DNA of 63,086 bases, counting the filler, from Hausera hauseri (lineage: Eukaryota): assembly GCA_046269625.1 (NCBI GenBank). It is 13 parts of 13 records of this genome, joined end to end, with 100 filler letters (N's around TTAATTAATTAA, not from the genome) between each part and the next. Parts side by side here need not be neighbours in the genome. Positions count along the whole stretch, not along the records: positions 44,030 to 48,190 come from JBJURY010728323.1; 12 more parts are not named here. The stretch is one strand, 5' to 3'. A model generated the notes under the pieces. That model was given only the letters and a program-made list of their open reading frames with translations. It was not told where the DNA came from and did no database searches. A program made the translations under genes and the position numbers. Below are positions 20,470-63,086 of this stretch, piece by piece; position 1 is the stretch's first letter; the number at the start of each line of letters is the position of its first letter.

Positions 20470-20569
20470 NNNNNNNNNNNNNNNNNNNNNNNNNNNNNNN
20501 NNNNNNNNNNNNNTTAATTAATTAANNNNNNNNNNNNNNNNNNNNNNNNNNNNNNNNNNNNNNNNNNNN

Positions 20570-20651
20570 TTTTTATAAAATTTAAAATGTTTTACGAAAG
20601 TTAATAATTAATATACAATTTAAATTTTATCAATCGAGTTTCCCCTCCACA
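20570..20651 (-). repeat. LTR-like terminus (TGTGGAGGGGAAACTC...), copy 1
   Basis: About 80 bp nearly identical to 48322-48403. Identity stops exactly at ...ACA, and both copies run into contig ends. Confidence 0.75.
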
Positions 20652-24200: not shown

Positions 24201-24794
24201 TTCCCGAGAATTTCCCAAATAGAAACGAGAAAAACTAATGTAATAACAACAACTTTTTCTTTAAGACAAAGTGGTATTCCTTTTAATTGCACTTCTGTTG
24301 CTAAAAAATAAACCCTAATTTATTTAATGAATCGACTAAGTACTGAGATAATTTCAAAAAACTGAAAAATAATCCATTGATTCCATTTGTGTCACATTTT
24401 ACATCAAAATTGTGATTATTAAAACAAAGTTATGACAAATAATACCATGAGTATTTCATCTGTTGTCAAATGCATGATTTCGTTTTTATTTCGGTCATCT
24501 TGTACTGTGCTTTAATGTTTTATATGCCGATGAAGAAATTTTAATTTTATTTAAATGTTTTGCGTAAAACACAAAATTTTGTATTTTATCGAGTACAAAA
24601 TACCGAAGCATTCAAATTCTAAACGAAAATCCGACAGTATTGTACATGTACTATTAAATATTCGCACTGAACNNNNNNNNNNNNNNNNNNNNNNNNNNNN
24701 NNNNNNNNNNNNNNNNTTAATTAATTAANNNNNNNNNNNNNNNNNNNNNNNNNNNNNNNNNNNNNNNNNNNNCCTGCAAAGGTATTGAATTCTT

Positions 24795-24899
24795 AAGTCG
24801 GGGAATCGGATCGGACTACTGACCCAACGCGGCGACAACGGACGCCCGGCCGTGCCCGACCAAATGGGTCAAAGGGCACCGGCCGCTGTGGGCACCACA
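24795..24899 (-). repeat. GC-rich TGTGGTGCCC terminal repeat (type A) of the cargo-cassette retroelement family
   Basis: Reverse complement starts tgtggtgcccacagcggccggtgccctttgacccatttggtcgggcacgg. Homologous to 44139-44245, 33349-33455 and 34929-35010. Confidence 0.85.
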
Positions 24900-25180
24900 G
24901 TCAACATTGCACTGATTTGCATTGTTTTGACTGTAACATATTTAATTATAAATTTCAAAGGCCTGCATTGCAATGCCCCATTAGTGACAAGAAAACGTTC
25001 TTCTGTTCCCTCGACCTTGATGGGTTAATTTTAAGTATTTTGAATGGTGATCGCTCGAAATCTACCGAAATCATTAATTTTAACAAACTGGATCAGTGGA
25101 AACCAGGTTTTAAGAAAGTACCTGGTATTCATAACGAGAACACTGATTTTTACAATGTGAAAGAATTTTTCCTCGCATAG
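24900..25180 (+). pseudogene. PIAS/Siz-like SP-RING (zf-MIZ) fragment
   Basis: HCTDLHCFDC...PALQCPISDKK...LDLDGLILSIL matches the SP-RING pattern CxHLQCFD...WxCPVC...LxIDG. The 5' end is cut by the repeat at 24899. Confidence 0.7.
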
Positions 25181-25379
25181 ATATGCCGATAAATTACGAT
25201 AGTTTTATTTCTAACCTAAAGTCAAATTACAGTACTGAATCTAATATTAAGAAACTCATTCACCACATTCTGCAAAATCCTAAGACAGTGTCTCTTTTTA
25301 GTAAATTTAAAGAATTGTTTTACTTTGAAAGATTCCCTTCAGTGATAATATAGCAGATTAATAAATATTGTTTAAAATT

Positions 25380-25705
25380 CCCATTTTTCGATTTATGCCA
25401 AATAATTTGCCATTGTTTAGACCACTCGGCTCCTTTGGAGTTCCTATTCAACTTGAAAAAAGCTTCAAATGGCGACTCGAACATTTCCAAGAGGAATGTC
25501 GAAATATGATGCCAAGCGGAACTGTCAAACTTATTTTAAAACGAGATGATCTTCTCGATTCATCTTACAATCAGGTAGTGATTATTGTCATATTGGCATT
25601 ATTCGGTTATGTTAGATAAATAATTTATCTCCCACGGAGTTAAAGAAACGCCTTAGTGTCCAGTTTCTTGGTGAAGAGGGTCTTGATTATGGTGGTGTAG
25701 CAAAG
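25380..25705 (+). pseudogene. NEDD4-family (Itch/WWP/Su(dx)-like) HECT E3 ligase fragment with a 41-nt intron (25575-25615)
   Basis: FKWRLEHF...VKLILKRDDLLDSSYNQ | GT-AG intron | INNLSPTELKKRLSVQFLGEEGLDYGGVA, the start of a HECT domain. Confidence 0.85.
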
Positions 25706-25999
25706 TATTCTTATTCTTATTATTAATTTCTCGTACTGTAAATTATCCCAATTCAAAATGTCAATGTATAGTGTTTTATTATCTTACCACTTTTCATCTA
25801 ATATATGATCTTCAGTTGACATTGTGTCTTGTGAATATTGGCTTCAAAGAGAATTACCATTGTAGTGTTCAACTTGCAACAACGGAAATATTTATCTACA
25901 TTATGGTAGTCCACAGTTACATAGTAAAATTTCATGTTGCTTACACTGAATCAGATACATGATGCCCTTATTACAATTGACAATGTAAGTAAATACTGA

Positions 26000-28396
26000 A
26001 ATTTTCAAAACAAGCGGATAATGCTTAGATGTCGCTCCAAATGTCAGCTTTTGCAAGCAATTACAAGCCATATTGAAACAACACGTAAAGTTTGGTCATC
26101 ATGAAGAAATAATCACTGCATGTCGACTACCCTCTAAGAGACAAGTGTTGTGGCATTTCTTTTGTCATCATACAACTCTCAAGAAAACCAAGACTGACAG
26201 TGCATCTGAATTTACTGAAGTTGTTATTTCCTTCTGGACTGCAGAACACGTTCCGACTTCTACTGTCTGCTATTGTAAGAAAAAGTTACTTGCGCTTGTG
26301 GAGCAGTACGAAAAGTTAAAGAAAAAATCGATTGATGGACTCGGAATCCTACAGAAAAACTAAGAATATCTCCAATAGAGACCTTGAGAAACTGTTCCAC
26401 ATCTACAAGTATGAAACTCAAATGCTGATGACAAATAAGGAAGATCGGACTTTCCTATAAGTCAAAAGGAAGATTGCACACAGTCGACAATGACAGGTGT
26501 CTATCAGGTACATCACAGCGCTTGTGGACTAAAACGCAAGGGGATGAACACACAGCAGAAGCGACACGAAAAATATTTGAAACAAAAGGAAACTTGGAAC
26601 CTGACATTTGATTCATCAAATATCGTTGGCCTCTTTTTTTCATCAACATCGGATGCTGAAGGTGTCGAACCCGAAGAAAGAAGTGATCCTGACTTCACCT
26701 ACAAGCAGCGACAAAAAGCAATCGCCATCGCATGAAAAACTGTGAAATGCTTGCTTCCAAGAAAATCTATATATCACCAACAATGCCTCTATTCTTACAT
26801 TGGGACACAAAGCTGTTACATGGTCTCACCAGAACACAGAAAGTCGATCGTGTTACAATCCTGGTTACTGGTGAAGATTAAGAAATCCTTCTTGGTGTAC
26901 TACCTGTTTCTAGAAGTACTGGGACTGCTCAGACAGATGTTTGCCTCATCCTGCTTCGTGAGAACAACCTTGCTGAGAACATTACAGGTGTAGCGTTTGA
27001 CACAACAGCTTAAAATACCGGACTATCCGAGGGAGCCTGCATGAAGATTGAACGCGGTCTGAATCGCGAACTTGTGTGAGTTGCATGTCAGCATCATGTT
27101 TATGAAATCGTTTTGAGTGACGTCTTCGCTAAAGCTTATGGTACTTTCTCTGTTCGCTTTCAGGAGAGCTGAAAATTAATTTACAAATCCAGATGGTCTG
27201 CCATCACCTAGGATGAAGATCTTGCACAACGATTCTTGGAAAATGGCGACCCGGTAGAAATGAAGACATCAGCAGTCAACTATCTGAATTCCACGTTGCA
27301 ACAGAAATCCCACCCTAGAGAAGATTACGCCGAACTTCTACAACTGGCTTTCCTATTCTTGGGAGAAGTTTCAAATGGTTCTGACATGATCTGTACACCT
27401 GGTGCGTTCTATCAAGCCAGATAAATGACCAAAGCAATCTGTGCTTTAAAGATCTATCTCTTCAAGAATCAATTTCAAATGACTGCCAAAGAGAAGCTTG
27501 CAATGCGAAGTGTCGGCTTGTTTATGGCCCTTGTCTACGTTAGGTACTGTAATGAAGCTATGATAGCTAGAATTGCTTCAAAAACGATCTCGACTTTGTG
27601 TCATCTTCAGAACGGTTTACCGGAGCAAAGCCTTTCAGAGACATCATTAACAGTTGGGAAGCGGCACCAGTGGTACATTTCAGAAGTGTTAGTCGGTTTA
27701 GCTTTTTTCGATGAAAGGATCGATTCCACAAAGAAGAATGTCATGATGCACAACCTGTAGAAACCAAAGAAAAAAGCTCTTAAGAAACTCGACGGAAAGA
27801 AATTTTATTTCCGCCAGTCACCAAGTGAATTTGTGACATCCAAGATCATGAGAATTTTTGCAGCGCTTTTTCCAGATGGTGCTGTACTGGCTGATCGTTT
27901 TTTGCACAAGAAACTTGAAGAATAAGACGAATACCCTACCTAAATACGGTTCAAGACAATCTTGTGATAAGATGACAGTCGCCAATGATTGTGTCGAAAG
28001 AGCAATTTCTCGCGACAAAATTCAATTCGACCCTATAAAAGGACGAGAAACAGAAGCAGTATATCCTGACTGTTGTGCGACCGCATCAGAAGGACATGCC
28101 TTGTTGTTCAAAGGACGCTTTCACTGAATAACATTTATGTGGGATACTGAACGCTATTCTTTCTGGTACACATGTTATTACTACATTATATTGTCGATAA
28201 TTATTTCTGTTGTATCAGTAACAAAATAAATGTTGTGAATCATCAATATCCATAGTACAAAAAGCACCAACTAGAGCGACCCCTAAATGATGCGATAGAA
28301 ACCTGAAACTTTGCAGTTTTATTTTGTTTTTGGAATGGAAATAAGGCAACACGTGTTTGACCTGATAATTTTAAATGGGAATTTTGAACCACCCTA
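26000..28396 (+). mobile_element. hAT-superfamily (hATm-like) DNA transposon remnant
   Basis: Decayed transposase: HWDTKLL, FDTTA, ACQHHVYE, REDYAELLQL, PGAFYQAR, HQWYISE, VANDCVER. The right end gaaccaccctA at 28396 is the reverse complement of a TAGGGTGG-type TIR. Confidence 0.75.
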
Positions 28397-28932
28397 GTGT
28401 ACATAGATAATGTCATCAGAAATTCGTATCTACAATTAGAATGTACTGATGATGAAAATCTGATTAATGGAGAGACAACAAAAATTTCACGGATTCATTA
28501 TTTTAAAAACTATATGTATAGAGTAATATGAATTACATATTTAATAAGTATTGGAATAATGTTTATAAAATTATTTTATGTATTGGAATAATGTCATTTT
28601 CATGTATATTTTGTTAGACGTTTTGTGAAAAATATATTTTCCTCCATTTGTTAATATTTTAGTTATGTTATTATCTTGTGAAACTTGTGTAGTGCTTTAG
28701 TTGAATTTCTAAAATGATGTGTGTGTGGATATAATATTTTAACAATGTACACAAAAATTTCGGCAAAATTTGTACAACTTTGTGTTGTCTAACATCGAAT
28801 CCGTGACATTTGTATTCATTCACCAATTTTCANNNNNNNNNNNNNNNNNNNNNNNNNNNNNNNNNNNNNNNNNNNNTTAATTAATTAANNNNNNNNNNNN
28901 NNNNNNNNNNNNNNNNNNNNNNNNNNNNNNNN

Positions 28933-31758
28933 GATGTTTTTCAGCTCAAGGAAAAAGCTGTCTGTGTCACCGGCAACGATACTGATCTCCGAGCCGTCGA
29001 ACATTTGCCGGTAACGTGCCAAGTCGCGATACTGTAGCTCGTACATCCGCAACTTGCTCAGGTCCAATACGACTTGTCCGATGTAACTTGGCCGGTCCAG
29101 AACGACTTCTTCCCTGTTTAGAAGCACGGCAACCAATCCTTCGGCAATGTGCATTGACCGCCGAAACTGAGCCTTGCTGGTGTACGTAACAAGTCGATTT
29201 TCATTATTGCACAGGCGCACATTGAGCCGCTTCTTCAGATTTTCCACTGTTTTTCCGTACAGTGAATTGTTTTTGAGCTTGTAATAGTCCTTTTCGAACT
29301 TTGTACAATCTGCCTTGAATATCGTCGCCTGATTGAAGCGGTTTGCACGATGAAGCTGTGTGACGCGTACACCAAGCTGCATGTAAAACTGCAGTAGACA
29401 CCAATGAACCATGTAATTTGATTTGGGTTCATGTGTTATGAGCAGTTTCTTTACTTCTGAGCCGCCGGGCGGACATTGGCTAATTGGTGCGGCCGGCAGT
29501 TCATCCAGAAAGTCATGCAGCTCATCTGGTACCATGAGATCGGCCTCCATCAGGTATCCGATTAAGCTGTTTTCTGCTGTTGTCGTGTCTGGCGCCCTCA
29601 ACAGATTTTCCAGTATTGTGTCCAGGTCCTGTTTATAGACCATCCATTCGAATGAACCGTACGGCAAGGGTTGTGAAAGCGCCCAGCCGTACAGGTAATT
29701 AATATCGATGTACAACATTGACGTTGTATCATTATCATCATCATCATCATCATCACTGGTTACATGATGTTTGTTGATAAATGTCATGTCGCCACGAATA
29801 CCAATATCAAATATTCGGTACATTTCCGCGTCTTGCAACAGCTCAATTTCCCTGTCCAGCGACATTAGTGCCAATGCCCAACTCATCCCCAGTATGGAGT
29901 AAAAGTTTAGCGGCTCCAGCCTATGTTTCACCAACGCCTTAGCACCAAATGTCTAAAACACATCGGCTAACAAGTACACGTCCAATTTCATGTACTGGAG
30001 CATATATTCCAACATGTTTCTGCAGCCGAGCTTTGTCCACGCTTCCTGTGCTCTGTGGTACTTGTCCTCTGTGATTCCGGCCCACTGTGGCGGCAATTCA
30101 TCTGTTGTCTGAAGCCGCTCGTACCACATAGCAAAGTCATATGGAAATATGCCTTTGCAGCGTGCAATATGCGCGGGGAACTGCGTCAGTGTTAGTGGCA
30201 CATCGGGCAAGGCATTTATGAGCTTTGCTAGAGACTCATTGAGGAACTGCAATGAGTCAAAAAATCGTACCTGAAACCGGTTTATGCGTGCCGATAAGGA
30301 CAGTTACTTCTCTATCGTTGTTGGGATTATGAATAGCTCCCAGTGTGGAAATCCGTTGATGGTTCATTTCAGAATATGGTGATAGTCATAACCCCTGAAG
30401 TTATGAAATATTACCGGCAGGAATGGCCGCAACCGTGTTGCCAAATTGCATGAATTGTCTGTTGCTCCCAAGTATCGACCAGTGAAATGATTGTGATCCG
30501 GTACGAGCCGTTCCTGTGCATCGAACGGCAATATTTTGTTGCTCAGGTAAAATTCGTCACTGGCAGAGAAAAACAGTGGTTCATATTTGTCTGCCCAGAC
30601 CAAGGGTTTAGTGCTATTATCCCAATATCACGACACGATTTCCGTTTCCACTATTGTCTCCAACTGATGCAGGAAGTCGCGGACACAGTCCCATCCGTGA
30701 AAAACGTAGTATTGTGGTTGTCCGTCGGCTTTGATTGGCACAACCAGCATGCCGACGGCAATTGGGGCATGCTTTTGATCGTAGATGTTGTGCCGTGGTA
30801 AAATTGTCTCGATATTGGCATATACAACATATGTCGGACTGTCAATTTTTGGCTAGTCACTGAACCTCAGTTACTTTTTGACTGGCATGACATACATCGT
30901 TGTTCCTGTTGCATTTTTCCTGCACAGCGCCGCATGCTTTTCCAATGTCGCTTCTGACCTAAAGCCATGTAGACATATGGGACACCATTTGCAGCTTATG
31001 CGTTTTTGGACAAACTGATGATGGTCCATGTTTAGTAGTCTATCCAAATTTGTTACTGCCACATAATGAAAGTTTTCTTCATTCTCCAACAGCAACAAAT
31101 TTATTGTGCGTCCATTTGGGTTCCGACTGCGGTAGATTATGTCTACATGGGGATTTTTGTATATTTCTTTATCTGTCGGTATCTCTATGATTGTGTTGTA
31201 CGGAAACACGTTGATTGCCAGTGTCGGATTACGCCGTTCAAAAGCAGAAATGGTTTCGAATTTCATCGGCATCCAAAATTCGTCGTAGTCCAATTCTGAG
31301 AAATACTTATTGTACTGCTTTGGACAATTTGCATGATGTCTAGACACTTGATCATATTTCAGTATGGCAAAAATGCTGCAAATAAAGCGGTATTCGTCGT
31401 TACTATTTTGTACATTCACTACCGCCAGAGACTGCTTCAAGGATGTAGGTGTCGGAATGAATAATGAACGTCCTGACAGGTAAATCATGTCACTCGTCCT
31501 GGTCAGAATAAAGCCGAGAGTGAGAATCTTTACAATTCGCCAATCACTGCCCTTTTCGGTGTAGTTGGCGATTTTTTCGTCAAGCTTTTCGCGTACATCG
31601 GCAATAAAACCCTGAGAGTATGGTACGGCTCGATGTGACATGGACCATTGTTTCCTGTCACCCTGCAGATTTTCAAATTGTGCAAGTGCATAATATTTTA
31701 CTTTGCAGTGGTGTTGTTGGAATTTGGCCACCTCTGATTTCAACCGGTTACGCACATT
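28933..31758 (-). pseudogene. Protein-primed DNA polymerase B (Polinton/adintovirus-like), decayed copy 2
   Basis: CPICLHGF Zn finger, DHNHFTGRYLGA, FHNFRGYDYH, YIDINYLYGWALSQPLP, KLKNNSLYGK, GDTDSFF. Clearly homologous to copy 1; homology ends at about 31758. Confidence 0.92.
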
Positions 31759-32329: not shown

Positions 32330-33220
32330 ATGACAGGTGAAGGAAGCAGCAAAGATAGATAAAATAAATAATTCAGGAATTATGTTTCAAAAACTAAAGT
32401 CGACTGAAGCATTAGAGTTTGTAACAGACGATCCGTTCAGGTACATAATGTGATCAATTTCCACTTCTGAACTGCCAGTTCCGTTGATATTGTGTTGACT
32501 AGCCTCAATAGATTGCGTCTCAAACGAATTTACGGAATCGTCAAATTCCGAAATTTTAATATGGACCGCCGAAACTCATTTGAGGCGATTGTAGTTTTTT
32601 ACAGTTGACGTCCGAATTGGTGGCAGTACAATCTGTCTTTTGATTGTTTTCGACAAGGCGGTTTTATCTTCTGACATTTTAAAATAATTGGGTAATTCAT
32701 TTTCGTAAAATCCATCGGCACTTCCGTATAAACGGTTTCTTTTTGTTGGATCGATAAGTACATTTCCCAATATGCCAAATTGCGAATTTCAAATGCGTTC
32801 GATCTCAGCAATATTCGGTCATTCATATTTTTCACGATCACCTGATACAATACAGATAAATCACCATTTTTATTTCCATTTCCACCAAAAATTATATTAC
32901 CATAAAATCCTTTGTTAGACATTTTTGAAAATGTTGCATTTATAATGAAATTGTTATTGTCATAATCAATTTTTGAACAAGTAAAATTATTCAATTTACA
33001 CAAATAGAACACTGTGCTTTGCCCATTTTCTTTTTTAATTTCACCGACAACATCCGAACTGTACGTATTTTGAATAAGATTAACGTTTTGTGATAAACCA
33101 TTTCCACTGATGACTTGTGAACCATAATTACTGACTGACCATTCAAGGGCGTTCGAAAATATTAAAACAATATACAATGAATAAAATAAAGAAAAAACGT
33201 GCTTTTTTCTTGCAGCTCCT
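32330..33220 (-). pseudogene. Frameshifted secreted/surface protein gene fragment (probable cassette cargo)
   Basis: Hydrophobic N-terminus (LFYSLYIVLIFSNA), Asn-rich body across ORFs 32599-33177 and 32576-32770, hydrophobic C-terminal tail. Lies directly inside the terminal repeat at 33349-33455. Confidence 0.45.
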
Positions 33221-33348
33221 AAAATATTTAAAATTAATTCGTTTTGGATTTTGAAGCGTTTTCGAAAGAGTAGTTAGAATTGATATTTTCCAACATTAAC
33301 CGAATACTATCGGGAGTTCTATCGTCACTTGCATTCATTTCAATTTTC

Positions 33349-33455
33349 AAGGCGGAAAATCGGGGCCTGTCTATGCGCCCGACACGCCGGCGGCGGAAAA
33401 CCCGACCGTGCCCAACCGAATTGGCCGGAGGGCAACAGTCAGTACGGGCACCACA
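33349..33455 (-). repeat. GC-rich TGTGGTGCCC terminal repeat (type A)
   Basis: Reverse complement tgtggtgcccgtactgactgttgccctccggccaattcggttgggcacgg...ccgattttccgcc aligns along its length with 44139-44245. Confidence 0.85.
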
Positions 33456-34089: not shown

Positions 34090-34925
34090 AGGAGTAAACA
34101 AAATTTATCGTCGAACGGGTTAAGTGCCTTCTTTTTTGAAGCCATTGTCATTAATTGGTGGTTCTTTGTACCAATTCTCTCCTGTTCAACTATTGTCCCA
34201 GAAACAGTTTCGTATGCCTGTAGATAAATGTTGTATTGTAAATCTGTCTGCTTCAGATCGATCACTTTGTATTTCAAGACTGATCTGTTGTGTTTTCAGA
34301 GCGTGATTTCGGCCGTCAGAAAATACCCTCTTCATATTCAAAACAACCCCTACTTTCATGTTTAAATTTACTAATCGCAATCGAGAAGCGATAGGAGTAA
34401 GAAGAATCGTTCATATCATAATTCGATGTGTCCAGCTGTTCATTTGAAATCATTGCTGGTAAAAGTTGGGATAGGACGTCAACACCACAGCACTCAAGAA
34501 AGAAGCTGTCCGTGTCACTAGCAATGATATTAATCACGCAGTTAAACTGGTGCTGTACATCTCTAACTCAATGTAGTTCAACTCAAACTAGAGAGATCAA
34601 GTACTACCTGACCGATATATGAGGGCCTATCTAAAGTAACCATACCTTTATCGAGGAGAACAGCAACCAGATCATCAGCTATAATAATACTTTCCTTAAA
34701 CTGTGCCTTGCTAGTATATGTAATAGGCTTCTTAGCATTATTACACTGTCTCAAGTTGCACATTTTTAAGAGACTCTCTACTGTTTTACCATATGCACTA
34801 TTGTTTTCCAGTTTAAAGAAATCTTTCTCAAAAGGATTAATCGTCTCAGCCTTTTAGCAGTGTTTAAATCGATATAATCCATGAACACATAACCCTAGTC
34901 AAATTTAACAGCCCATGAACATAAA
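34090..34925 (-). pseudogene. pPolB C-terminal fragment, decayed copy 3 (more divergent)
   Basis: KLENNSAYGK, LDRPSYIGQVVLDLS, SDTDSFF, KFKHE, KKALNPFDDK. Confidence 0.85.
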
Positions 34926-36134: not shown

Positions 36135-37550
36135 GCTGAAATGAGGAAGATCGGGCTTTCTTGGTACGTCAACAGGAAGATCGCACACAGTCACCAATGG
36201 CGGATGTCGATCAGTTACATCACAGCGACTGTGAACTGAAACGCAAGCGAATGAACACATAGCAGAAGCGACAGGAACAATATGCGAAATAAAAGGAAAC
36301 TTGAAACCTGACAGTTGATTCATCAAATATCGTTGGCCTCTCCTTTTCTTCATTATCGAGTACTGAAGGTGTAGAATCTGAAGAAAGTAGTGATCCCGAC
36401 TTCACCTACAAGCAGCGGCAAAACGCAAATCTGACAGAGATGTCTAAGGTCAATGATCAAACTCTACTGAATTCAGCAGTAACTTTAACATTAGATCTCG
36501 TGAATTTTTCTGACAGGAAAGGTATGTTTGCACTTGAGGCAGTGGCAAAGGCAACTGATCACAGTTGGAGTGATCTGATGTGTTTCAGAAGTTCCATTCG
36601 TCGCCGTCGCATGAAGAACCGTGAAATGTTTGCTTCCAACAAAATCGATATATCACCAATGGTGTCTCTATTCTTACATTGAAATACGAAGCTGTTGCCT
36701 GGTTTTACGAGAACACAGAAAGTCGACCGTGTTGCAATTCTGATTATTGGTAAAGATCTAGAAATCCCGCTTGATGTACTCCATCACGAACTTGTGTGGG
36801 CTGCATGTCCGCATCACGTTTATGAAGTCGTCTTGACTAACATCTTCCCTAAGGCTTATGATACATGCACAGGACCATATGTTCAGCTCTTTGTTCGCTT
36901 TCATGAGAGCTGGATATTAATTGACAAATCCCAATGGTCTGCCGTCAGTGAGGATGAAGATTTTGTGCAATGATTATTGGAAAATGGCGACCTGGCAGAG
37001 ATGAAGGCATCAGCAGTCAACTATCTGAAGTCTGCGTTTCAACAGAAATCCCACCCTAGAGAAGATTACGCCGAACTTCTACAACTGGCTTTCTATTTCT
37101 TGGGAAAAGTTTCAGATGTTTCTGTCATGATCCGTACACCTGGTGCATTCCACCAAGCCAGACAGATTGTCAAAGCAATCTATGCTCTAAGAGTATATCT
37201 CTTCAAGAATCAGTTTCAAATGATTGCCAAAGAGAGGCATGCAGTGCTCAATGTCGGCTTGTTTTTGGCCCTAGTCTATGTTAAGTACTGGAATGAATCT
37301 ATGATAGCTACATATTCTGCAAAAAACGATCTCGACTTTGTGCCATCTTCAGAAGGGTTTGCCGGAACGAAGCCTTGCAGAGACAAGATTAACAGCTTGG
37401 AAGCGGCACCTGTGGTACATTTCAGAGGAGTTAGTCGCTTTATCTTTTTTCGATGAAAGGATCGATGCCACAAAGAAGAATGCCTTGGTGCAGAACCTTC
37501 AAAAATTGCCAAAGAAAAAACTCTTAATAGACTCGACGGAAAGAAGTTCC
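36135..37550 (+). mobile_element. hATm-like transposase remnant, copy 2
   Basis: Nucleotide and protein similarity to 26430-27820 (ACPHHVYE, REDYAELLQL, PGAFHQAR, HLWYISEELV), with an internal deletion. Confidence 0.8.
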
Positions 37551-39812: not shown

Positions 39813-39879
39813 TGAGAATGAGCAACCAATAAGAAGAGAGCTATATATAGAAGCTATTCTTATTGGTTGCTCATTCTCA
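39813..39879. repeat. 67-bp palindrome (23-bp perfect arms) centred on TATATA, upstream of Rep
   Basis: tgagaatgagcaaccaataagaa (39813-39835) / ttcttattggttgctcattctca (39857-39879), loop gagagctatatatagaagcta. Confidence 0.9.
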
Positions 39880-40034
39880 AAAAGGAGAAGATACTTTTGT
39901 AAATTCATAATATGAACAATCATGTGATTCAATATCTTCGTTTTTGATTGTGTGTAACTGGTGATATGTTATGCAATATATGAGATATTGTATAAATTCG
40001 TAATAATTTATACAATATTTCATATTTTTGCAGC

Positions 40035-41647
40035 ATGTCTTTATCGTCGCAACATGTTATGACACGGGAGGAAAGAAATCAAAGAGTAATTTTATTATTA
40101 TTATTATTATTATTATTTGATTGTGTCTCCAGGGATATGGTGAAAACTTCACTATACATAATGCCCGATTGGGTTTGTACACACGACTGTTTCCCAGTAA
40201 TGATGAATGTACAGATGCACTTCAGAGAAGATTTCCGGATAAAATAGAAGAATTGGTCTGGCCTCCGGAAGGAGCAACATTCCGGCATTATATGGCCGTA
40301 ACAAAATATGATGACAATACAGATTTATGTGTTATTATGAGTAACTTTATAAGATTGTCTTTGATGTATAAATTTTATATGAAGGTGGTGGAGGATACGT
40401 CTCCTTCTGGTTTCCACCACCTTCACTATTTGTTTTATTTAAAAAATCCTATGCGGTTGCATAGATTTAAAACTGTTTTCGATTTTTTATACGTTATACC
40501 TTTTAGAAGTGATGTGTTCGCGGTTTACAAATATCATGAAAAAAATGTAAACCCGAATCTTTTTGTAATGACCCTTGGTAATCCCCCTATCGATATTAGT
40601 AGAGAGAACAATAGTAGGAAAGCTTTATACCGTCTATTCGACGACGCTCCCACGGTCTCGGAAGCTATGAACATCATGAAGGAGGGAGACCGTGCGGAGT
40701 TTGTTACTCGTCATAAGCTCCTCCAATCGTACTGCGCATCCAAATTTAAGCCGAAAATCACTGCTAATACTAATTACATATTCACTATCCCCCCTATAAA
40801 GTTTAGGTTGGATGCAGGTGTGAACACTGCCTTGCTATTTGGCTCATCTAATATAGAAAAAACCTGCTACGCCTTATCCCATGGTAGCAACCCTCTTATA
40901 CTTCACTCTCTGCACGACACACCTGCAGAGTGGTCTACTGTCTATGATGTAATTATCTTTGACGACGTCGGGTTTAGCGAGGTGTGTCCCGACATCTTTC
41001 TTAGCATCGTTCAATGTAACCACGTAAATGATAACAGGAGTATACGTGGACTCTACAAATCTGTTGTGGTACCTTCTAGTGTACCGGTCATTTTTACATA
41101 TAACTCCCAATCCTCCTTTTGGCCTCGAAGGATGGATTTAAGTTAGAAGGAGGCGTGCTTAAAAAGATGCTTACTGTATGAGTTTGGCGATTTCATGCTG
41201 TATCGCACAGGTGAAAGTCGCGATCGATTCTTAACTGAGAACAAAGTGGATTTTAGGAAATTAGCTGAGGAGTATGTGGAACCTCCTGTAATTAATGTGC
41301 CTGTTAGTTTACCTGAAACTATTCCCATGGAAATTCCTATAGTAATTCCACCACACCAATCATTAAGTGTTAACGTCGATGGGGATTGTATGGAAGATGA
41401 GTTGTTTCGTTCACCGTCGTTTGACAGTTCGCCGCCTGCTTTACTTAATGTAAATAATTATCGTCAAGCTTATCATAGGGAAGTCTTGTCTCCGTTCCAT
41501 ATGTGTAGCGAACGGTGTTACGTTGCTCCCGCTGTAGACTTTTTAGCAACTGGTGTTTCTCCTGTTGAGATCGATACTGCCCCAGCGTATGTACGCTATA
41601 ACGATATTGATGTTGATTGGGGCAGAGACGATCATGTCACAATGTAA
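40035..41647 (+). pseudogene. rep: CRESS-DNA-virus-like replication initiator (HUH endonuclease + SF3 helicase), spliced, with one in-frame stop
   Basis: Exon 1 40035-40085, GT-AG intron 40086-40132, exon 2 from 40133. Motif I FTIHN, II HHLHY, III YKYHEK; Walker A GSSNIEKT (degenerate), Walker B IIFDD, motif C VIFTYN, Arg-finger-like ACLKR. TAG at 41144 is followed by an in-frame continuation to 41647, then AATAAA at about 41702. Confidence 0.8.
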
Positions 41648-42289: not shown

Positions 42290-42749
42290 ATATGACATTG
42301 CTCGTGACCCTGTGCCTCCTCCTCCTGCTGACTGTGCGACTGAATATAAACCGATATTGAAATTGGCTGAGGATAGTAGCGATGCTGAGAGTCAGGGTCC
42401 TAGTGAGGCTGACACAGAGCCTATGGAGTCTTTTGTTTAATAAATATTCGTAAAATCAAATGTCTTTGTTTATTTGTCTTTGTTTGTATGTTATTTGTTT
42501 CCATTTTTTGTTACATTTTTGTTTATATGTTGCCATGGTAACAAATTTTTTATATTCTTATGTGCCCAAAATCACCGATTCGTGTACGTTCCCATCTCAC
42601 CCCTCACACCGTGCCCAGAGTGCGACCTAAATTTTTTGCATTGGTTATAGAGTATGATATGGGCTATCAGAGACTCTTGTTTTCCCCGAGAATAAATTTT
42701 AATTTTTATAAAAATAAAAATTAATTGTTAGCATCTATCATTTCTAACA

Positions 42750-43859: not shown

Positions 43860-44138
43860 TATGTGTGTTTGTGTGCGTAGTGTTCTATTTATAGTATCAC
43901 GCTCAATTGATATAGCGTGCTCAAATTGANNNNNNNNNNNNNNNNNNNNNNNNNNNNNNNNNNNNNNNNNNNNTTAATTAATTAANNNNNNNNNNNNNNN
44001 NNNNNNNNNNNNNNNNNNNNNNNNNNNNNTACCCCCATATTATTCATATTTCCCAGCAATGGTCTGTATTTTACTTACATTCCTATCTTTTACATATTTT
44101 ACACACCAAGTACCCATATTTTACCAGTATCACCTAGA

Positions 44139-44245
44139 TGTAGTGCCCACAGCGGCCAGTGCCCTTTGGCCCATTTGGTTGGGTACGGCCATGCGTCCGT
44201 TGCCGCCGCGTCGGGCCCATAGGCGGGCTCCGATCTTCCGCCTCG
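44139..44245 (+). repeat. Left (outer) inverted repeat of the cargo cassette, type A
   Basis: tgtagtgcccacagcggccagtgccctttggcccatttggttgggtacgg...; its reverse complement aligns with 47026-47128. Confidence 0.85.
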
Positions 44246-44631
44246 GAAGTGTCTCAGTGTACTAAGAAATCTTCCACTCTTCCGAATGTTCTGGAGGGTG
44301 GTCGGTTTGGTGGTGCGGTGGATTCCGTGGAGTCAGCCGAAGAACAGTTTAAAAAAATTGATCATGCAACGATGAATGTAGTTGCATTCGAGGGTCTGTG
44401 CCGACCACTATCAGAATTGTCGTACCTGCTCTCTAATATTCAAGTCGATAGAGATACCGTCAACCGTAGCAATATATAAGTTTCAGCCTTTTCAACGATG
44501 CCTCATCATTTGTTTCAAACTATATCTGAATGAAACGACTAGATAATTTTTAACATCTTTAACGAAAACAACATTGCAAACAAACAATCAAACAAACAAA
44601 CGTCAACACCGAACTAAAACAAGAAACAACA

Positions 44632-45085
44632 ATGTTTTTATTATTGTCAGTAATTATTTTCACTTTCTCAAAATTCGTTCCGTGCCATTTATCGATTAAA
44701 TACGAAAACCGTTCAAATTATGTTGAATTGCTCAAAAATCGAAGTAGATCGAGAGTGGAGGTACCGTTTGAATGCGAAAAGTATCCGTTAATTGTCGAAG
44801 TGGTATTGGGAATTGTTTTATCATTATTGCTGCCGGATCTATCGGTGGGAATTTTCTTGTCATTCTCGGGGTCAGTTTAGTAAGAAAATTACAAACTTAT
44901 ATATTGGTTATACCCGTTGCCATGTACAATCAATTGATACAATTTCGTTGGCCATTTAATGAACAATTCCGTGATGCACTTCTATCATTTGACGTACGGT
45001 TTTGTACATCTAGCACATTAAATCTCTGTGCGATATCCATCGATCGATACCTCGTCATTACAAAACCCATGGAGCATGCTAAAGT
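44632..45085 (+). pseudogene. Biogenic-amine (serotonin-receptor-like) GPCR fragment, N-terminus to TM3
   Basis: GGNFLVILGVSLVRKLQT and FDVRFCTSSTLNLCAISIDRYLVITKP. Frameshift in TM1 and deletion of part of TM2. Confidence 0.85.
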
Positions 45086-45215
45086 TGTGCGTGAGATATA
45101 TGTGATTAATTATTTGTTTTGTTAAAATAAACTAAAAAAATTGTAAACAATGAATTTTGAATAAAAAAGTTTTAATAGAAATTTTTATTTTCAGTGGTAT
45201 TTTTACTCAATGATC

Positions 45216-46235
45216 TAGATTAAAGTAGCGTACTTTTATGAAACAAATGTTGGAAATTTTCATTATGTTTTGAATCACCCTATGAATCCCCACAGACTTT
45301 CTTTGACTCATTCTCTTTGTGTTCATTATGATTTGGCAAAGCAAAGGGACATTTTTCAGCCGCCGAGAGCAGCAGCCCAAGACATGTGCACATTTCTCAG
45401 TCGGGATTATATTGAGTTTCTTCAAGCAGTAACATTGGAAAATGTGAAATTCTATCCCAAAGATAAAATTGTTAGATATAACGTTGGAGAAGATCGTCCA
45501 ATATTTCCTGGTATATCTGAGTTTTGTTCGATATACACCGGTGTGTCGTTGCAAGCGGCGAAATTTTTAAACAATGGCATTGCTGATATTGCAATAATGT
45601 GGTCTGGTGATTTGCATCATGCGAAGAAATTTTTTTGCTACGTTAACGATATTGTTATTGCGAGATTGGAGTTGTTGAAATATAATCAGTGTGTTTTATA
45701 TGTTGATATCGATGCACATCATGGGGATGGTGTACAAGATGCATTGTATTTTACTGATAGCGTTATGACGGTTTCATCTCACAAATATTATAATGTTTTT
45801 CCCCGGAACAGGTGACATGTATGAATTGGGGTGTCGAATGTGGATGGTGCTACTCCACAAACGTTTCTTTGAAGGAAGGTATAATCGATGAAATGTATGT
45901 GTCTGTTTTCAAATCGGTAATAAACGATGTAATAGTGTTTTTCGATCCGGGCGTTGTCGTTCTTCAATGTGGGGCCGATAGTGTTGGATGTGGCGGGTTG
46001 GGTATCTTTGGTTTATCAATTAAGGGCCGCGGGGAATGTGTTAAAATCGTAAAAGGTTATGGTATACCGTTACTGTTGCTCGGTAGAGGGGATTACACTG
46101 TCCGTAACGTTGCTAGATGTTGGGTGTATGGAACTGCAGTTCTTCTCGATATGGAAAATGAAATTTCCAATGACTTACCATATTCAGAGTAGTCGGGATC
46201 CTTCGTTCAGATTTTACACTCCATCCTGACTTAGC
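45216..46235 (+). pseudogene. HDAC3: Class I histone deacetylase (HDAC3-like), nearly complete catalytic domain, intronless, decayed
   Basis: [76 protein letters not shown]. Frameshift near 45810. Confidence 0.88.
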
Positions 46236-46626
46236 AAACTTTTTCGAAAATTTTAATAAGTAACAGGTGGCTGACGAAATGGGCAACAAGCACGGAATTG
46301 ACATAAGAGAACAACTTATTCATGATTATGAAACAAATAACGATACCAGAATGCCAAAAGTGACCGTGAGTACGGCTAGTCCTTCTGCGGGTCACGTACG
46401 TTATTGCCAGCAGTGCGACGTTAGTATAGAATTTAATAAATGGTGTCAGGAAAATTTGTATTATTCGGCTATCCCATAAAAGTAATACTCATTAATCTTA
46501 TAACAACTGATTATCAAATCGAATTAACACCCAGTAATAGTAATATATCACTTATTAATGATCGTTGGTGCTGGGATAAAATGCACATTGCCCCGACAAT
46601 AATTAATAAGGATGATCGAAAATTTC

Positions 46627-47010
46627 ATAAAGTTCGATCCCATGTTCTCAGAGGCACCAATAGTGATGACCGAAAACTTAAAGTTGTTGATAAAACCGTA
46701 ACGTAGGTGGTTGCTAAAACTGGTTATGATCCATGGGGCATTAATTCAAAACTTAGTCCGACTATGGTTGTCGGTTTGGATATATTTCACAGTAAGACTG
46801 GTAAGAGATCGGTTCAAGCTGTAGTTTTTTCTATTAGTACAAAGTTCACTCAATATATTAGCCTCGTTAATTTGACTAAGGGAAAAAGTGAATACCACGA
46901 TTCGCCTAACAGAAACACCGCTGTGGCAATCAAGTGCTTCAAAGATAAGTTTAACATTCTGCTTCAGAAGCACATTATCTACCGTTATGGTGTTAGCAAT
47001 TTTCAGCCGT
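46627..47010 (+). pseudogene. PIWI-clade Argonaute fragment (MID/PIWI junction)
   Basis: AKTGYDPW...PTMVVGLDIFH...RSVQAVVFSI...TQYIS...HIIYRYGVS, corresponding to the MxxGxDVxH and IIYRDGVS motifs. Confidence 0.85.
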
Positions 47011-47025
47011 ATTTCATCAAACTGC

Positions 47026-47155
47026 AAGCGGGGAACTAGGCTATCCTGCAGTTTGCGACCCGCCGCGGCGAGGCTGAAGCCCTGGCCGCCCACCCTATGT
47101 CACTGGGCCAGACGGCAACGTTCGCTGCCGCCTCGCGACAGGCCCCCGGCCACAC
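47026..47155 (-). repeat. Right (inner) inverted repeat of the cargo cassette
   Basis: aagcggggaa...gacccgccgcggcga...gccctggccg...tgggccagacggcaacgttcgctg matches, in order, the reverse complement of the type A terminus (compare 24795-24890 on the + strand). Confidence 0.75.
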
Positions 47156-47164
47156 GACCTCTGT

Positions 47165-48190
47165 ATTTTCTTTTCTTTTTTTTAAATAATAAACATATTT
47201 GCACAAACGCAGTAACACACACACTGCAGCCATCTACAACATCATCGCCACTTTTCTTTGCTCACCTGACTTTTACCCCACACACCACGACTCCACGGTA
47301 CCTCTCGTTAGAACCCTACAATCTTCTTTATCTGCCTTCACATACACTTCCGCATCTGTGGTGGCATGGATTCATCACCCACTATTTATACCACGGACAA
47401 ACCCACCAAACCACCGATCTCCATCACTTACCTACCCAAACAAAGTGTTTCAAACACTACGACACAGCACACACTCCCTGCTCATTCATCCTGCACAGAA
47501 TACTTCCTCGACAGCCAAAATTCTACCAAAACATGGCTAAAACTGCATCAATTCTGGCTCCAATCACAAAACGGCGTCGACCCCTTATTCAAAGCCAACA
47601 GCCTGTTTTTTTCACTTACCTACTTCTACCAAAACCAAAATTACAAACATCATCGACATCCTTCACCACACCAATCCACATGCTCAACTTTACAATGCCG
47701 TGGACCTTCAGAAACCTTCTAAATTCTCAATACCCTTGGCGTAACATCTAAGCCCAGTCCAGAACTTCTTCGTCGCTACTTTTTAAATTCATTGTCCCTT
47801 CAAATAAGAGCTTTGCTCACTGTGGTCGAAGACTCCACGACACTGGGAAAGTTAGCCGAACTGGCAGACAAAGCTTATGAAGTGCTGCACTCACACACAT
47901 TACCAACTGTCTCTGCGGCAGTAACAACAAACCACCAACGACAAAATGCATTGCTGCAGCAACAAATTTCGCAATTAAGCTTAGACAACGAAATTTTGCA
48001 AAAAACAATTAATAACAAACGAGAAATTGAATGAGTTAACGCTGCCTCAACGAGGTTTTCCCAGGGCTGTTTTCCCTTATGTATTTCAACGAAAAAAACA
48101 GTCGCCTTCGCCCGCGCGGTCGTCTATTTGCTACTATCACAACAAATTTGGTAATAATGCTCAGAAATGCTGCATCGGTTGTAAATTTCA
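47165..48190 (+). mobile_element. Ubiquitin-like domain fused to Gypsy-type Gag (decayed copy A)
   Basis: LHIHFRICGG ends at 47365. Then Gag-like sequence TWLKLHQFWL...FKANSL, PELLRRYFLNSLSLQIRALL...LAELADK and the Zn motif CYYHNKFGNNAQKC..GC. Confidence 0.8.
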
Positions 48191-48321: not shown

Positions 48322-48403
48322 TTTTTATAAAATTTAAAATGTTTTACGAAAGTTAATAATTAATATACAATCTCAATTTTATCAATTGAGTTTCCCCTTC
48401 ACA
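48322..48403 (-). repeat. LTR-like terminus (TGTGAAGGGGAAACTC...), copy 2, inserted into the Gag of copy B
   Basis: Near identical to 20570-20651. Interrupts the Gag reading frame right after LAELAD. Confidence 0.75.
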
Positions 48404-49170
48404 GTCCGCAAGTTCCGCCAGTTTGTCGAGCGACGTAGTATTCTCTACAATAGTAAGGAGTGCGCGGATTTGTATTGGCAAAGATGATAAGAAATATCGT
48501 CGAAAAAGATCCGCGTTATTTTGTTAGTTTACTCCTAGTGAGTTTATTTGTGAAAGTGAGGTGCGAAGAAATTCTGAGGGCTTTTGCTAGCCAAGAGCGT
48601 TTTTGTTGAAGTATTTTTGTATTATTGAGTCTAATGAAGGCTCGGTTGATGTGGTTACGAAGTTAAGTAGTGATTTGGATGGATCAGAACGATTAAAGAT
48701 GTCAGAAAGATTAGTTATGCCCGATTTTATATCGGGTGGCAGATGGCGAAGTAGACTGTTGGCCTTTTGAAACGAATCAGTGATTTTATATGAGGCTAGC
48801 CACTTTGCGTGGAAGTCTAGCATGTTTTGAAAGAGTTCTGGCTACCGAAGAAAAAGTTTACACACTGAAAATGTGAGAAAGAAGATGGAGTTGGAGAAAG
48901 AAAGGTTATGTTTGGGGATTTTTTATCTCCTAAGACTTGGGGTCAGAGCCACCACGAAGTTTAGGAATTAGACGGAAATAGAGAGATGAAGAATGTTATT
49001 GAAAAGAGCATAGCAGATAGTCGTGGCGAATAATGAGTCCATTCAGAAATAGAGAGAAACGCGAAAGATGAACGTCATTGCGGATTGAGATGTATATATG
49101 TTTCCCTAATGTTTTGTGATTTCCGATGGGTATGAATATGTATATTTTAAAAAAGATGAAAATAGTAAAA
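48404..49170 (-). mobile_element. Ubiquitin-like domain fused to Gypsy-type Gag (decayed copy B)
   Basis: KIYIFIPIGNHKTL...FSLFLNGLII...YFRLIPKLRGG (LRGG at 48959-48948), followed by FHAKWL...FQKANSLLRHLP...KPSEFLR...FRRYFLSSLPIQIRALL...LAELAD. Confidence 0.8.
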
Positions 49171-49184
49171 GAATTGGCCAACAG

Positions 49185-49320
49185 GTTTGGGGTACAGTGC
49201 GCTGTAACGGGCGCGGGCGCGCCAAGACTTCCATCAAGGCGACATTCGGGCCTTACAACCGGTGCGCCAAGAGTCAAGACCTCCACCCGACAACTCCCGA
49301 TCGGTCGGAACTCAGGTTTA
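49185..49320 (-). repeat. GC-rich segment immediately upstream of UBL-Gag copy B
   Basis: Isolated GC island in AT-rich DNA at the same position as the inner repeat in copies A and C. Contains an internal tcttggcgc direct repeat. No partner repeat clearly found. Confidence 0.55.
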
Positions 49321-61216: not shown

Positions 61217-63086
61217 ATACTTTATAAAATTTGGGGAAGATTTTTAATCTTTGGTCAAGCCGCATCAGGATTTTTAGCGATATATTTTCTGATACAAATG
61301 AATAAGGCAGTCATCCAAGCCGTAATAAACGGATAAGAAATATTTACGCTAACCGGATTTTCATGTAAGATTCTGACTGCAATCATAACGACTTTTGGAA
61401 AACTCTTAAAAGTTTACGAAGAGAGCAGATGGAAATCGGACGTAAAACGTCATGTCGGTTATCATAATCGTAAACGAAGAGGGAGACCGATATTCCTACG
61501 GAAGCGGAAGTCTCCAAAACCGAATATACAAATAAATAATTCAGATGATGACGAGCCTAAGGGAGGAGAAGCATTCTCAGGGATGAATAGACATAAGATG
61601 TACTCGGTCGTTAAAGTACCATTGCCCATGTTACATCATACTGATCCATTCTACGACGATTGCGACAAAAGGTCCATGAGCTCATATCAGACAGAAATTT
61701 ATAAAAGGACAATTAATGTAGAAGATCCTTACGAAGGAACGAAACGATACGGAATTTTACTGAAAATGTGCTACCGTCAATCCGCGGATGATCTAAGATG
61801 ATATACTCGCCAAGAGAACTTAAGAATATTGAGACTAGATCGACAGTTTGGGACAACCCAAGATGAAAAACTTTCCAACATACTGAAATACACACTAACA
61901 ATCGGGAGCCACTAATTAGTATTCATGAAACGGAAAAATTGCACGTAGAAAATAACGAATTATATCCAAACGGAGAGTTATCGGAAAACATAGTATCCGC
62001 CCCAGAAGTAAGAATAAACGGACACAAAATATCGGTGACTAAACTTTCGAAACTAGCATCAAACTGTTTTGGAACTGTGATCGAAGGAAGACCCTTCGCC
62101 AAAATCATCATTGAAGATTGGGAAGTTTATGCGTTAATTGATACGGGTTCCGAGATGTCTTACATCAAAAATGATTCAATACCTCAAACGCTAAGAGGAC
62201 AGTTATATCCGCCGTCTACGAAAGATCCGGGTAGTACAGGAGCTTTTGGCCAAATGTCAAAACCAATCTTTAAATGGAACCCAGAAGTCCAATTAGTTGG
62301 GCAAACATTTCGACATGAATTTACAATCATTGAACAATTAACTGACGATGTCGTTCTGGGATGCGATTTATTAAAAAGGCTACGAAATATAGCGGTCGAC
62401 TTGCAAGCAGGAAAATTAATAGAAATGAGACCCAATAAAGGCGTGAAAAACTCTAAGGATAGAAAATTTGGAGAAATGTGGGTACCAGTAGACGAGAATA
62501 TCCCACCAAGAACGGATATAATAATTTATGCACAAATTCAGCAAGATGACGGTCAGCCAATATATTTCGAACCAAAGGAAACGTTAAATCCAAATATAAC
62601 GCTCAGTAACGTACTTACGAGAGTACACTATGGTCGTGTACCGATCAGAATAGCGAATAATGCACCAGTTCCTATAAAATTCTATGCTTATACGACTCTA
62701 GGAGATACGTATAGAGTATCGTCAATAACCATTGAAGAAAAGCCTTATAAGTATGTCAAATTTCCGCCTCATGTTGAAACTAAATTCTCCCCAGAATCTT
62801 ACTGTCGACTTTACGAATTATTGTGCCGATATAAATCGATTATTGCTAAGGATGAAGAGTATATCGGTAGAGCAAAAGCGTTAAAACTGACTATTCCACT
62901 CAAGAAGAAGCCTGGTTCAAATGAAGAAATAGATCTGGGGGATCAGAAGATGCCGAAATGGTACCCTCCACCACATTCGTTAAGACCTGAGATAACAAAG
63001 GAAGTTGAACGGATGCTTAAGGCCGACATAATCAGGCTTAGTTATAGATTCTGGTACTCACGTATCCTTATGGTTAAAAAGAAAGG
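61217..63086 (+). mobile_element. Second Gypsy element: decayed gag, aspartic protease and start of RT
   Basis: VYALIDTGSEMSYI and DVVLGCDLL (protease), then EITKEVERMLKADII...W.S.ILMVKKK (RT N-terminus), open to the window end. Confidence 0.85.

Follow-up and report, generated by a model that had tools for sequence, protein, structure and literature searches.

In a window of 63,086 nucleotides from the genome of Hausera hauseri (GenBank assembly GCA_046269625.1; the window is the whole stretch of DNA analysed), we found copies of a Gypsy-type long terminal repeat (LTR) retrotransposon family in which pieces of host genes lie between GC-rich inverted arms, directly upstream of a gag gene that begins with a ubiquitin-like domain (UBL). 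The cargo differs between copies and runs in the sense direction, a polypurine tract (PPT) precedes the arm, and the encoded protein has UBL and capsid folds. The explanation that we favour, at a probability of about 0.55, is that reverse transcriptase loads host mRNA sequence into an LTR that is itself transcribed, that captures keeping the reading frame survive, and that host deubiquitinases free Gag. The family would then have a CsRn1-type Gag and an LTR of 1.8-3 kb or more, made of an outer arm, host-mRNA cargo and an inverted inner arm.

The window consists of 13 short contigs joined with spacers, and protocadherin, axonemal dynein and PIWI pieces mark its source as an animal. The evidence comprises the window itself, two public runs (X1 and X2) compared with contig 10, and ten predicted proteins from other assemblies (P0001 to P0010).

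Cassette borders and inverted arms

Contigs 10 and 13 each carry one cassette bounded by TG and CA, of 3002 and 1793 bp respectively, with imperfect, subtype-matched, GC-rich inverted arms. In contig 10 the outer arm (44139..44245, plus strand, type A, 68% GC; alignment and profile) begins with the TG of the LTR start, and its imperfect inverted copy, the inner arm (47026..47140, plus; alignment, duplex and profile), ends with the CA of the LTR end. In contig 13, on the minus strand, the LTR starts with a type B outer arm (61170..61216; alignment and profile) and closes with a type B inner arm (59424..59469; alignment and duplex) whose CA is followed by a run of C. Contig 11 holds only the inner end of a third cassette (49198..49300, minus, type B-like, CA end, C-run next; alignment), its outer arm lying outside the contig. 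Aligned from the TG, the CA stands in register at 47140 and 59424, in both complete cassettes, and neither cassette (contigs 10 and 13) is surrounded by a target site duplication (TSD).

The further termini of the original prediction were recovered as type A outer arms by alignment and profile: one with its start at 33455 (32602..33455, minus), followed by a 224-codon sense open reading frame (ORF) with one break in 856 bp, one at a contig end (24789..24899, minus), and a decayed one in contig 8 (34929..35007, plus) with neither a TG end nor an open frame behind it. A type B outer arm with a 232-codon sense ORF (52225..53453, plus; alignment) does not point towards the contig 11 gag but away from it, and it probably belongs to a second, nested copy. 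The four type A copies, 105-111 bp long, resemble one another with z = 8.7-26.9, similarity being scored as the z of local alignments against dinucleotide shuffles; the type B start is shorter.

The inner inverted copies are weak singly but specific. In contig 10 the inner and outer arms agree in 70 of 123 columns (57%; z = 3.4), a pair that BLASTN misses, and in contig 13 in 29 of 47 (z = 4.2). Over 112 bases, the type A arms matched the contig 10 inner arm with z = 3.4-3.7 and the contig 13 inner arm with z = -1.0 to -0.2, while the contig 13 outer arm matched its own inner arm with z = 4.3 and that of contig 10 with z = -0.1. The arms thus covary by subtype, as had been proposed (own-type pairs z = 3.4-4.3, cross pairs z = -1.0 to -0.1). 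Duplex energies agreed: pairing of the contig 10 inner arm with type A arms had z = -4.4, -3.3 and -2.0, the two arms of contig 13 reached -4.4 with each other, and cross pairs had +0.9 to -1.8; the decayed contig 8 arm showed nothing. The contig 10 pair in cis reached only -2.0, and 5 of 200 shuffles were equally stable. When a profile built from the three intact outer arms was run over the whole window, it found two further places only, the contig 8 arm (E = 2.8e-6) and, on the opposite strand, the contig 10 inner arm (E = 0.018). The contig 10 inner repeat, which had been placed at 47026-47128, is hence real though weak, and its end lies at 47140.

The original prediction had also cast a giant stem-loop as a working part of the element. 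The arms are complementary over just 57-62%, and with the cis duplex z of -2.0 in contig 10 we do not uphold this claim. Self-folding of the type A arms gave z = -0.2 to -2.3, and covariation over four arm sequences gave a term of -0.25 with two-sided changes in 5 of 23 pairs; a conserved RNA structure in the arm is only weakly supported. Rfam returned three matches (E up to 2), none of them in the arms, and thus no known ribozyme or RNA family; no tRNA gene was found in the window. The outer arms read TGGTGCC from base 3 (at 44141, 24897, 33453, 61214 and 52227, with one A variant), and the copies diverge after 7-8 bases; we take this motif to resemble the start of several tRNA primer sites.

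Comparison with run X1 placed the LTR start. Just before 44139, 187 X1 contigs part from the reference and continue in unlike sequence (agreement 0.36); 61 part from it before 44137 and carry there a G-rich tract (agreement 0.56) that has the place and form of a PPT. Because unlike flanks or a PPT-like tract directly precede the outer arm, we regard it as the LTR start, and the cassette is very probably an LTR or an LTR-like 5' end, as first proposed and in keeping with the TG and CA in register. The left flank itself (44030-44138) is a very high-copy repeat, with a depth of 20,000-55,000 in X1 and about 900-1300 in X2. Behind the arm, X1 contigs diverge, 44 of them behind 44245 and 67 behind 44228. 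Summed depth in X1, which is not a copy number, nonetheless differs between arm or gag and cargo by two to three orders of magnitude: it was about 20,000-31,000 in the two arm bins, the first of which includes the separate high-copy flank repeat, 4,200-11,200 over gag and 20-69 over most of the cargo. These depths and the CsRn1-type Gag bear out the claim of a high-copy Gypsy-derived family.

Across the outer arm end the X1 depth drops abruptly from 19,845 to 41, and from the inner arm outward it falls stepwise (1136, 416, 278, 279, 210, 111, 42). Five X1 contigs join PIWI to the inner arm with staggered breakpoints, and two appear, from the match table, to bridge the junction of arm and cargo; no X1 piece listed spans the whole stretch. 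In the long X1 pieces listed, which are the longest and not the closest ones, divergence from the window is about 2% in the receptor, 10% in HDAC3 and 12-19% in PIWI. Entry of new cargo next to the arm is expected to produce an abrupt fall in depth behind the arm and a gradual one on the gag side, and depth polarity and divergence together fit a scheme in which fresh cargo is added beside the outer arm and older cargo is cut back at differing positions. X1 differs from the window alleles at many places and, since these alleles are absent from it there, probably represents another individual than the window source. In run X2 (organism B), arm and gag sequence was present at low depth, with almost none of the contig 10 cargo.

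Host-gene cargo and its reading frame

The contig 10 cargo lies on the plus strand. Its arm-proximal part (44246..44476) is an open frame with no family or structure match, for which a spectrin identity was not supported. It is followed by a 5' piece of an aminergic G-protein-coupled receptor (GPCR; 44632..45086, Pfam 7tm_1) with its own AUG, one frameshift and an in-frame deletion of 16 residues in transmembrane segment 2. An AT-rich, intron-like stretch (45087..45194, GT...ttttcAG by eye) separates this from an HDAC3 piece (45210..46260; Pfam and alignment), which runs from the start codon, has an intronless catalytic domain and is decayed by frameshifts and a 4-residue in-frame deletion; no intron interrupts its alignment with human residues 5-199, and Pfam positions 1-297 are covered contiguously. 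A MMACHC-like piece (46312..46434; E = 6.4e-5, below the Pfam cut-off) continues in frame with the HDAC3 tail, and a PIWI-domain piece (46707..47036; Pfam) shares its frame with the UBL helix. Pfam and fold comparison confirm the predicted order of GC-rich repeat, GPCR, HDAC3 and PIWI cargo, inverted repeat and UBL-Gag, to which MMACHC (E = 6e-5) is now added. Two Pfam matches on the opposite strand of this cargo, DUF7649 (E = 3.5e-4) and TM225 (E = 0.012), fell below the cut-off and were treated as chance, and ADAR-type hypermutation was not supported, the substitutions in the HDAC3 alignment being mixed by eye.

In contig 11, on the minus strand, a DNAH3-like dynein piece (50284..51205, following DNAH3 1815-2062) precedes a NAT10-type acetyltransferase piece (49588..50013; Pfam PF13718, which we take to be NAT10) in the frame of the second dynein ORF; the predicted sequence of cargo pieces, GC-rich inner end and UBL-Gag therefore holds in this contig also. 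The contig 13 cargo (59470..61169, minus) is nearly one frame and includes a 295-codon ORF (60357-59473) in frame with UBL-Gag. For this contig (61216 to 59424) the layout, the different repeat subtype and the differing cargo stood as predicted; its cargo, of presumed host origin, matched no family in Pfam and structure-atlas searches. All structure-atlas scores were under 0.9, and no family matched the ORFs that follow the arms in contigs 7 and 11.

The Pfam scan covered 134 frames from contigs 10, 11 and 13; within cassettes six matches exceeded the cut-off (7tm_1, HDAC twice, Piwi and GNAT_acetyltr_2 twice), and all six lie on the gag strand. The cargos of these three contigs share no similarity with one another. 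Of six regions lying behind or inside arms, five have a longest sense frame (189-295 codons) that none of 200 shuffles reached, the exception being contig 8. The identified pieces have lost invariant residues and, to judge from their sequence, are not functional.

Among the proteins from other assemblies, the same Gag is preceded by DIS3L and CNOT1 pieces in P0001 and P0004, which form one cluster, and by a CARM1 piece in P0009, so that cargo differs between copies here as it does among contigs 10, 11 and 13, and its predicted exchangeability is sustained. About 130 extra N-terminal residues are present in P0006, and P0005, P0007 and P0010 are without the N-terminus. In P0007 the C-terminal half of Gag is fused to a bacterial DUF5777 gene, probably in a chimeric contig. 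Six of the nine identified cargo genes act on RNA or chromatin (PIWI, HDAC3, NAT10, DIS3L, CNOT1 and CARM1) in this small sample biased to conserved genes; the remaining three are a GPCR, MMACHC and DNAH3.

Apart from the one intron-like stretch, the cargo consists of partial, intronless, sense mRNA pieces from several genes, as retrocopies do, and it was quite probably captured by switching of the reverse transcriptase. Its reading frame tends to continue into UBL-Gag. Upstream of the LTR end, the Gag frame contains 1 stop in 300 codons in contig 13 (21.9 expected), 2 in 200 codons in contig 10 (11.8 expected) and none in 100 codons in contig 11 (6.1 expected), and read-through of the LTR meets 5 breaks in contig 13 and 15 and 17 in the others, as compared with 22.8, 35.0 and 38.1 in shuffles. 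Four of five junctions are in frame (HDAC3-MMACHC, PIWI-UBL, DNAH3-NAT10 and contig 13 ORF-UBL; binomial p about 0.045), a count that leaves out GPCR-HDAC3, with the intron-like stretch between, and MMACHC-PIWI, whose boundary is unclear. Both multi-base deletions seen, that of 4 residues in HDAC3 and that of 16 in the receptor, are in frame. These data incline us towards selection for an open frame in the cargo. At 59470-59475 (minus) the stop of the 295-codon cargo ORF abuts a same-frame ATG at the inner arm start, either a decayed read-through or a stop-restart coupling.

Ubiquitin-like Gag and the primer-binding position

The UBL begins 9, 23 or 26 bp after the LTR end in the three contigs. 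In contig 10 it spans 47163..47365 (plus), ends in RxxGG and is broken by frameshifts and stops, with weak profile matches (E = 0.035 and 0.43) at the expected place; the Gag behind it (47366..48190, plus), comprising a capsid region and a CHCC finger (48129-48182), is decayed and cut by the contig end. Contig 13 encodes an open UBL (59415-59197) and the N-terminal part of Gag (together 58907..59415, minus), likewise cut by the contig end. In contig 11, UBL (49172-48948) and Gag (together 48404..49172, minus) are broken at 48403 by another repeat. A repeat of 82 bp, 95% alike and starting with TG, lies at 48322-48403 and 20570-20651, where it cuts the contig 11 gag and ends contig 5; it is probably the terminus of another element.

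The model of the N-terminal domain (74 residues; predicted local distance difference test score 68.5) has a beta-grasp fold, and nearly all of its top 50 structural matches are ubiquitin-family domains, each individually weak (best named UBL: Z = 6.2, root-mean-square deviation 3.2, 67 residues). All three matches of a UBL profile search were UBLs (E = 0.19-1.4), and Foldseek found no match at E = 0.001 for either structure model. RxxGG is present in all three window copies and in all four outside clusters that reach this position, and the UBL would probably be cleaved after the GG by host deubiquitinases. A partial second UBL inside P0004 was not supported.

The capsid fold emerged from comparison of the P0002 model with retroviral and retrotransposon capsids (top five Z = 8.4-9.4, root-mean-square deviation 2.7-9.8, 82-163 residues). 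A CX2HX9CX3C finger is found in contig 10 and in nine of the ten outside proteins; P0008, an ordinary DUF7041 Gag, is without it, and the outside models have two fingers. Similarity of Gag to DUF7041 is below cut-off (E = 2e-4 to 0.012). The finger is a signature of CsRn1 according to PMC2582038. As judged from its sequence the family is a CsRn1-derived Gypsy; we do not call it a member of the clade because the tRNA-Trp primer site was not found. The pol of contig 3 was rejected as that of the family, there being no arm in that contig and no link to it.

In the CsRn1 clade the 5' LTR is followed by the tRNA-Trp primer site TGGTGA(G/C)CCCG (PMC2582038). This site is absent after the CA in all three contigs, all of them decayed copies, in line with the earlier failure to see a primer site behind the inner repeat: contigs 10 and 13 have no match within 3 mismatches, and contig 11 has one 2-mismatch match inside the GC-rich inner arm and none after the LTR end. 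Instead, a C-run complementary to the PPT and without TGG occupies the primer-binding position of contig 10 (47141..47150, plus), and in all three contigs a run of four or five C begins within 6 bases after the LTR end, against a background of 0.7-2.2% of positions. Complementarity of the C-run to the PPT suggests that the inverted repeat takes in both PPT and arm; the run could equally be a relic of the Trp site. The simplest account of minus-strand priming, which we consider speculative and on balance unlikely, is by analogy with Tf1 that the RNA would pair its 3' PPT and arm with inner arm and C-run in place of a tRNA. The original prediction had overlooked this PPT-complementary C-run, as well as the in-frame tendency of the cargo and the polarity of cargo sharing.

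The DNA context of relatives was not found in viral or metagenome contigs. A candidate genome relative (L052) was dismissed as a 29% match in a bacterial record that looks like chance, and the 51 arm-pattern matches in viral contigs are each at most 22 bases long, with none encoding Gag.

Several other elements are present in the window. Three decayed regions of family B polymerase (Polinton-like) lie at 1565-4373, 28937-31758 and 34298-34886, those of contigs 1 and 7 being 75% alike. A single-exon, protocadherin-like ORF by eye (5635-7899, plus), an unrelated Gypsy pol with reverse transcriptase, RNase H and integrase, behind which about 3.5 kb of decayed extra ORFs close with a PH domain (9516-15656, minus; E = 4e-11), and an unbroken 1088-codon ORF of a long interspersed element, RTE-like by eye (16163-19429, minus), were also seen. 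Contig 5 (20570-24672) is mosaic-like, with helicase-like exons separated by introns of 55-65 bp (by eye), a dynein-like piece similar to contig 11 and weak Lactamase_B and Dynein_C matches. Two decayed transposase-like regions (26433-27804 and 36139-37548), 83-85% alike and without Pfam match, are presumably Sola2-like. A 341-codon ORF at 40121-41143 (plus) has rolling-circle Rep-like motifs by eye and no Pfam match; a 392-codon ORF lies on the other strand, and hairpins nearby at 39813-39879, 39975-40028 and 42691-42726. The contig at 54009-58806 consists of GA-rich simple repeats with gaps. At 61211-61333 and 61867-63084 (plus), a Monjiviricetes-type fusion glycoprotein fragment (E = 7.5e-8) stands upstream of a Gypsy protease ORF, and the contig 13 cassette starts at its edge.

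Proposed mechanism, alternatives and known systems

Under the explanation that we favour, transcription would start near the outer arm, so that the cargo would lie in the R and U5 parts of the LTR and lead the RNA. While copying this long leader, reverse transcriptase would switch to a co-packaged host mRNA and return at the arm in first-strand transfer; in consequence new cargo would land beside the arm and old cargo would be trimmed at staggered points. Gag would often be translated from an AUG in the cargo, and captures with an open frame would survive while their amino acids decay. Host deubiquitinases would cut after the GG of the UBL and release a uniform Gag, whatever is fused upstream.

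Several observations weigh against this scheme. No full-length element, second LTR, TSD, pol or transcript of the family was seen, contigs 10, 11 and 13 ending or breaking in gag. The proteins P0001-P0010 are predictions without sight of their DNA and may be spliced, and two of the searches favoured long fusions; P0003 has no leader at all, and that of P0002 is short (about 95 extra N-terminal residues). Each structural match of the UBL is weak alone (Z = 5-6.9, E > 0.02). Because any captured coding sequence gives long sense frames, only the junctions test selection on the frame; they are few, and one of them, between NAT10 and UBL in contig 11, does not keep the frame. Contig 10 has a second frame that is nearly as open (1 stop in 100 codons, 4 in 200), as well as 5'-untranslated-region-like and intron-like stretches with stops in all frames. 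The PIWI depth gradient may partly come from host PIWI paralogues, and no cluster of loose ends, expected of 3' LTR ends, occurs at 47140 among the X1 matches listed (12 of 567).

The most serious alternative, which we nevertheless judge unlikely, assigns the cargo to U3, with the promoter further downstream in the inner arm; captured while the 3' LTR is copied and never translated with Gag, it would be a neutral by-product. Three points suit this alternative: it is in U3 that LTRs usually vary, the inner arm contains or begins with an AUG (47097 and 59469), and non-coding stretches occur in the contig 10 cargo. It does not, however, predict in-frame junctions and deletions, the near-continuous frame of contig 13, continuous models of 900-1051 amino acids or a predicted cleavable UBL at the LTR border. 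Improbable in our view is an asymmetric element whose true terminal repeat is the arm of 45-110 bp only, the cargo belonging to the 5' leader and having no second copy at the 3' end. The abrupt divergence behind the arm, the low X1 depth of the cargo (about 20-60) and the lack of a loose-end cluster at 47140 among the matches listed speak for it, but the outer arm has neither a CA end nor a primer site behind it, whereas the inner arm ends in CA in register.

Terminal inverted repeats (TIRs) had suggested an analogy with Pack-MULEs, and the intron-like stretch (45087-45194) is a hint of DNA-level capture. Yet a separate non-autonomous TIR DNA element of Pack-MULE or Pack-TIR type, inserted before gag, is already largely refuted and very improbable: no TSD surrounds either cassette, the cassette holds the same position before the UBL in all three contigs and in two subtypes, 61 X1 contigs have a PPT before the arm, and the cargo is sense and mostly intronless. 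The analogy was accordingly given up. That the contigs are assembly chimeras joined at GC-rich repeats is hardly credible: the contigs are short, no X1 piece covers the whole stretch and P0007 is fused to a bacterial gene, but X1 contigs with other alleles bridge arm and cargo as well as PIWI and inner arm, and the layout recurs with other cargo in other assemblies.

If capture into a transcribed, translated leader is correct, the family would supply an animal genome with in-frame domain shuffling on a large scale, and it may reveal a new way of priming reverse transcription. Descriptions of mRNA capture by LTR elements have so far treated it as a rare accident by which the element is crippled; in this family it seems to be part of the design, with a fixed slot in the LTR, cargo that varies between copies and a predicted cleavable spacer that would make Gag indifferent to it. 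A bolder version, which we hold to be doubtful, is that the life cycle samples the host transcriptome, each round possibly loading an mRNA piece at a fixed LTR site in an ordered, leader-first manner, with the piece kept in frame, removed from Gag by the ubiquitin spacer and serving as disguise or shield, and with tRNA priming replaced by pairing of PPT and arm with their inverted copy. The cargo could act as a disguise because silencing of the LTR would also strike host genes (PIWI, HDAC3, DIS3L, CNOT1, CARM1). A benefit of host sequence to the transposon would then be testable through small RNAs, chromatin and copy number across differing cargos.

Deubiquitinases cleave the precursors FUBI-S30, Ub-S27a and SDE2, which are among the profile and structural matches of the N-terminal domain. 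Like them, the family fuses a GG-ending UBL to the N-terminus of another protein; here, unlike there, that protein is the Gag of a retrotransposon, and variable cargo may stand in front of the UBL. With the CsRn1 clade of Gypsy (CsRn1, PwRn1 and AgCR; PMC2582038) the family shares the CX2HX9CX3C finger, a DUF7041-like Gag, a TG-starting LTR and a PPT before the 3' LTR, and it differs from the clade as described there in having no tRNA-Trp site, an N-terminal UBL, two fingers in the outside models and a kilobase LTR with long inverted arms and host cargo. As with the self-priming Tf1/sushi elements (PMC7175516), there is no tRNA primer site and the RNA is self-complementary near the LTR end. 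Tf1 pairs the first 11 bases of its own RNA with the primer site (PMC7175516), whereas in our decayed copies the run behind the LTR matches the PPT rather than the LTR start, and any such mechanism is hypothetical.

Mosaics of host gene fragments between inverted repeats are also known from Pack-MULE, Pack-TIR and Helitron capture (PMC6431247). Those are DNA transposons capturing at the DNA level, whereas here the repeats are imperfect (57-62%), the cassette has no TSD, a PPT stands before it and gag after it. Long LTRs and host-like domains recall the giant Gypsy elements Burro and Ogre, whose extra domains are, in the same account, stable polyprotein parts or accessory ORFs (PMC6431247), in contrast to the swappable, decayed LTR cargo seen here. 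In LTR-mediated retroposition in animals, template switching explains captured mRNA pieces, which replace internal ORFs (Tan et al. 2016, PMC5131818), and reviews place capture downstream of pol or between LTRs (PMC6431247). The partial, intronless, multi-gene mRNA pieces of our family resemble these cases, including maize Bs1 as cited there (PMC5131818). The cases of Tan et al. are one-off crippled copies (PMC5131818), unlike the present cargo, which lies upstream of gag between TG and CA ends, is a family trait and tends to be in frame. No title or abstract start that we found concerned LTR-borne cargo that shares its reading frame with a ubiquitin-like Gag, a search that left subscription journals and Repbase reports outside its scope, so that a prior description is possible. 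New here are the tendency of the cargo to keep the reading frame of UBL-Gag and a C-run at the position of the tRNA-Trp primer site.

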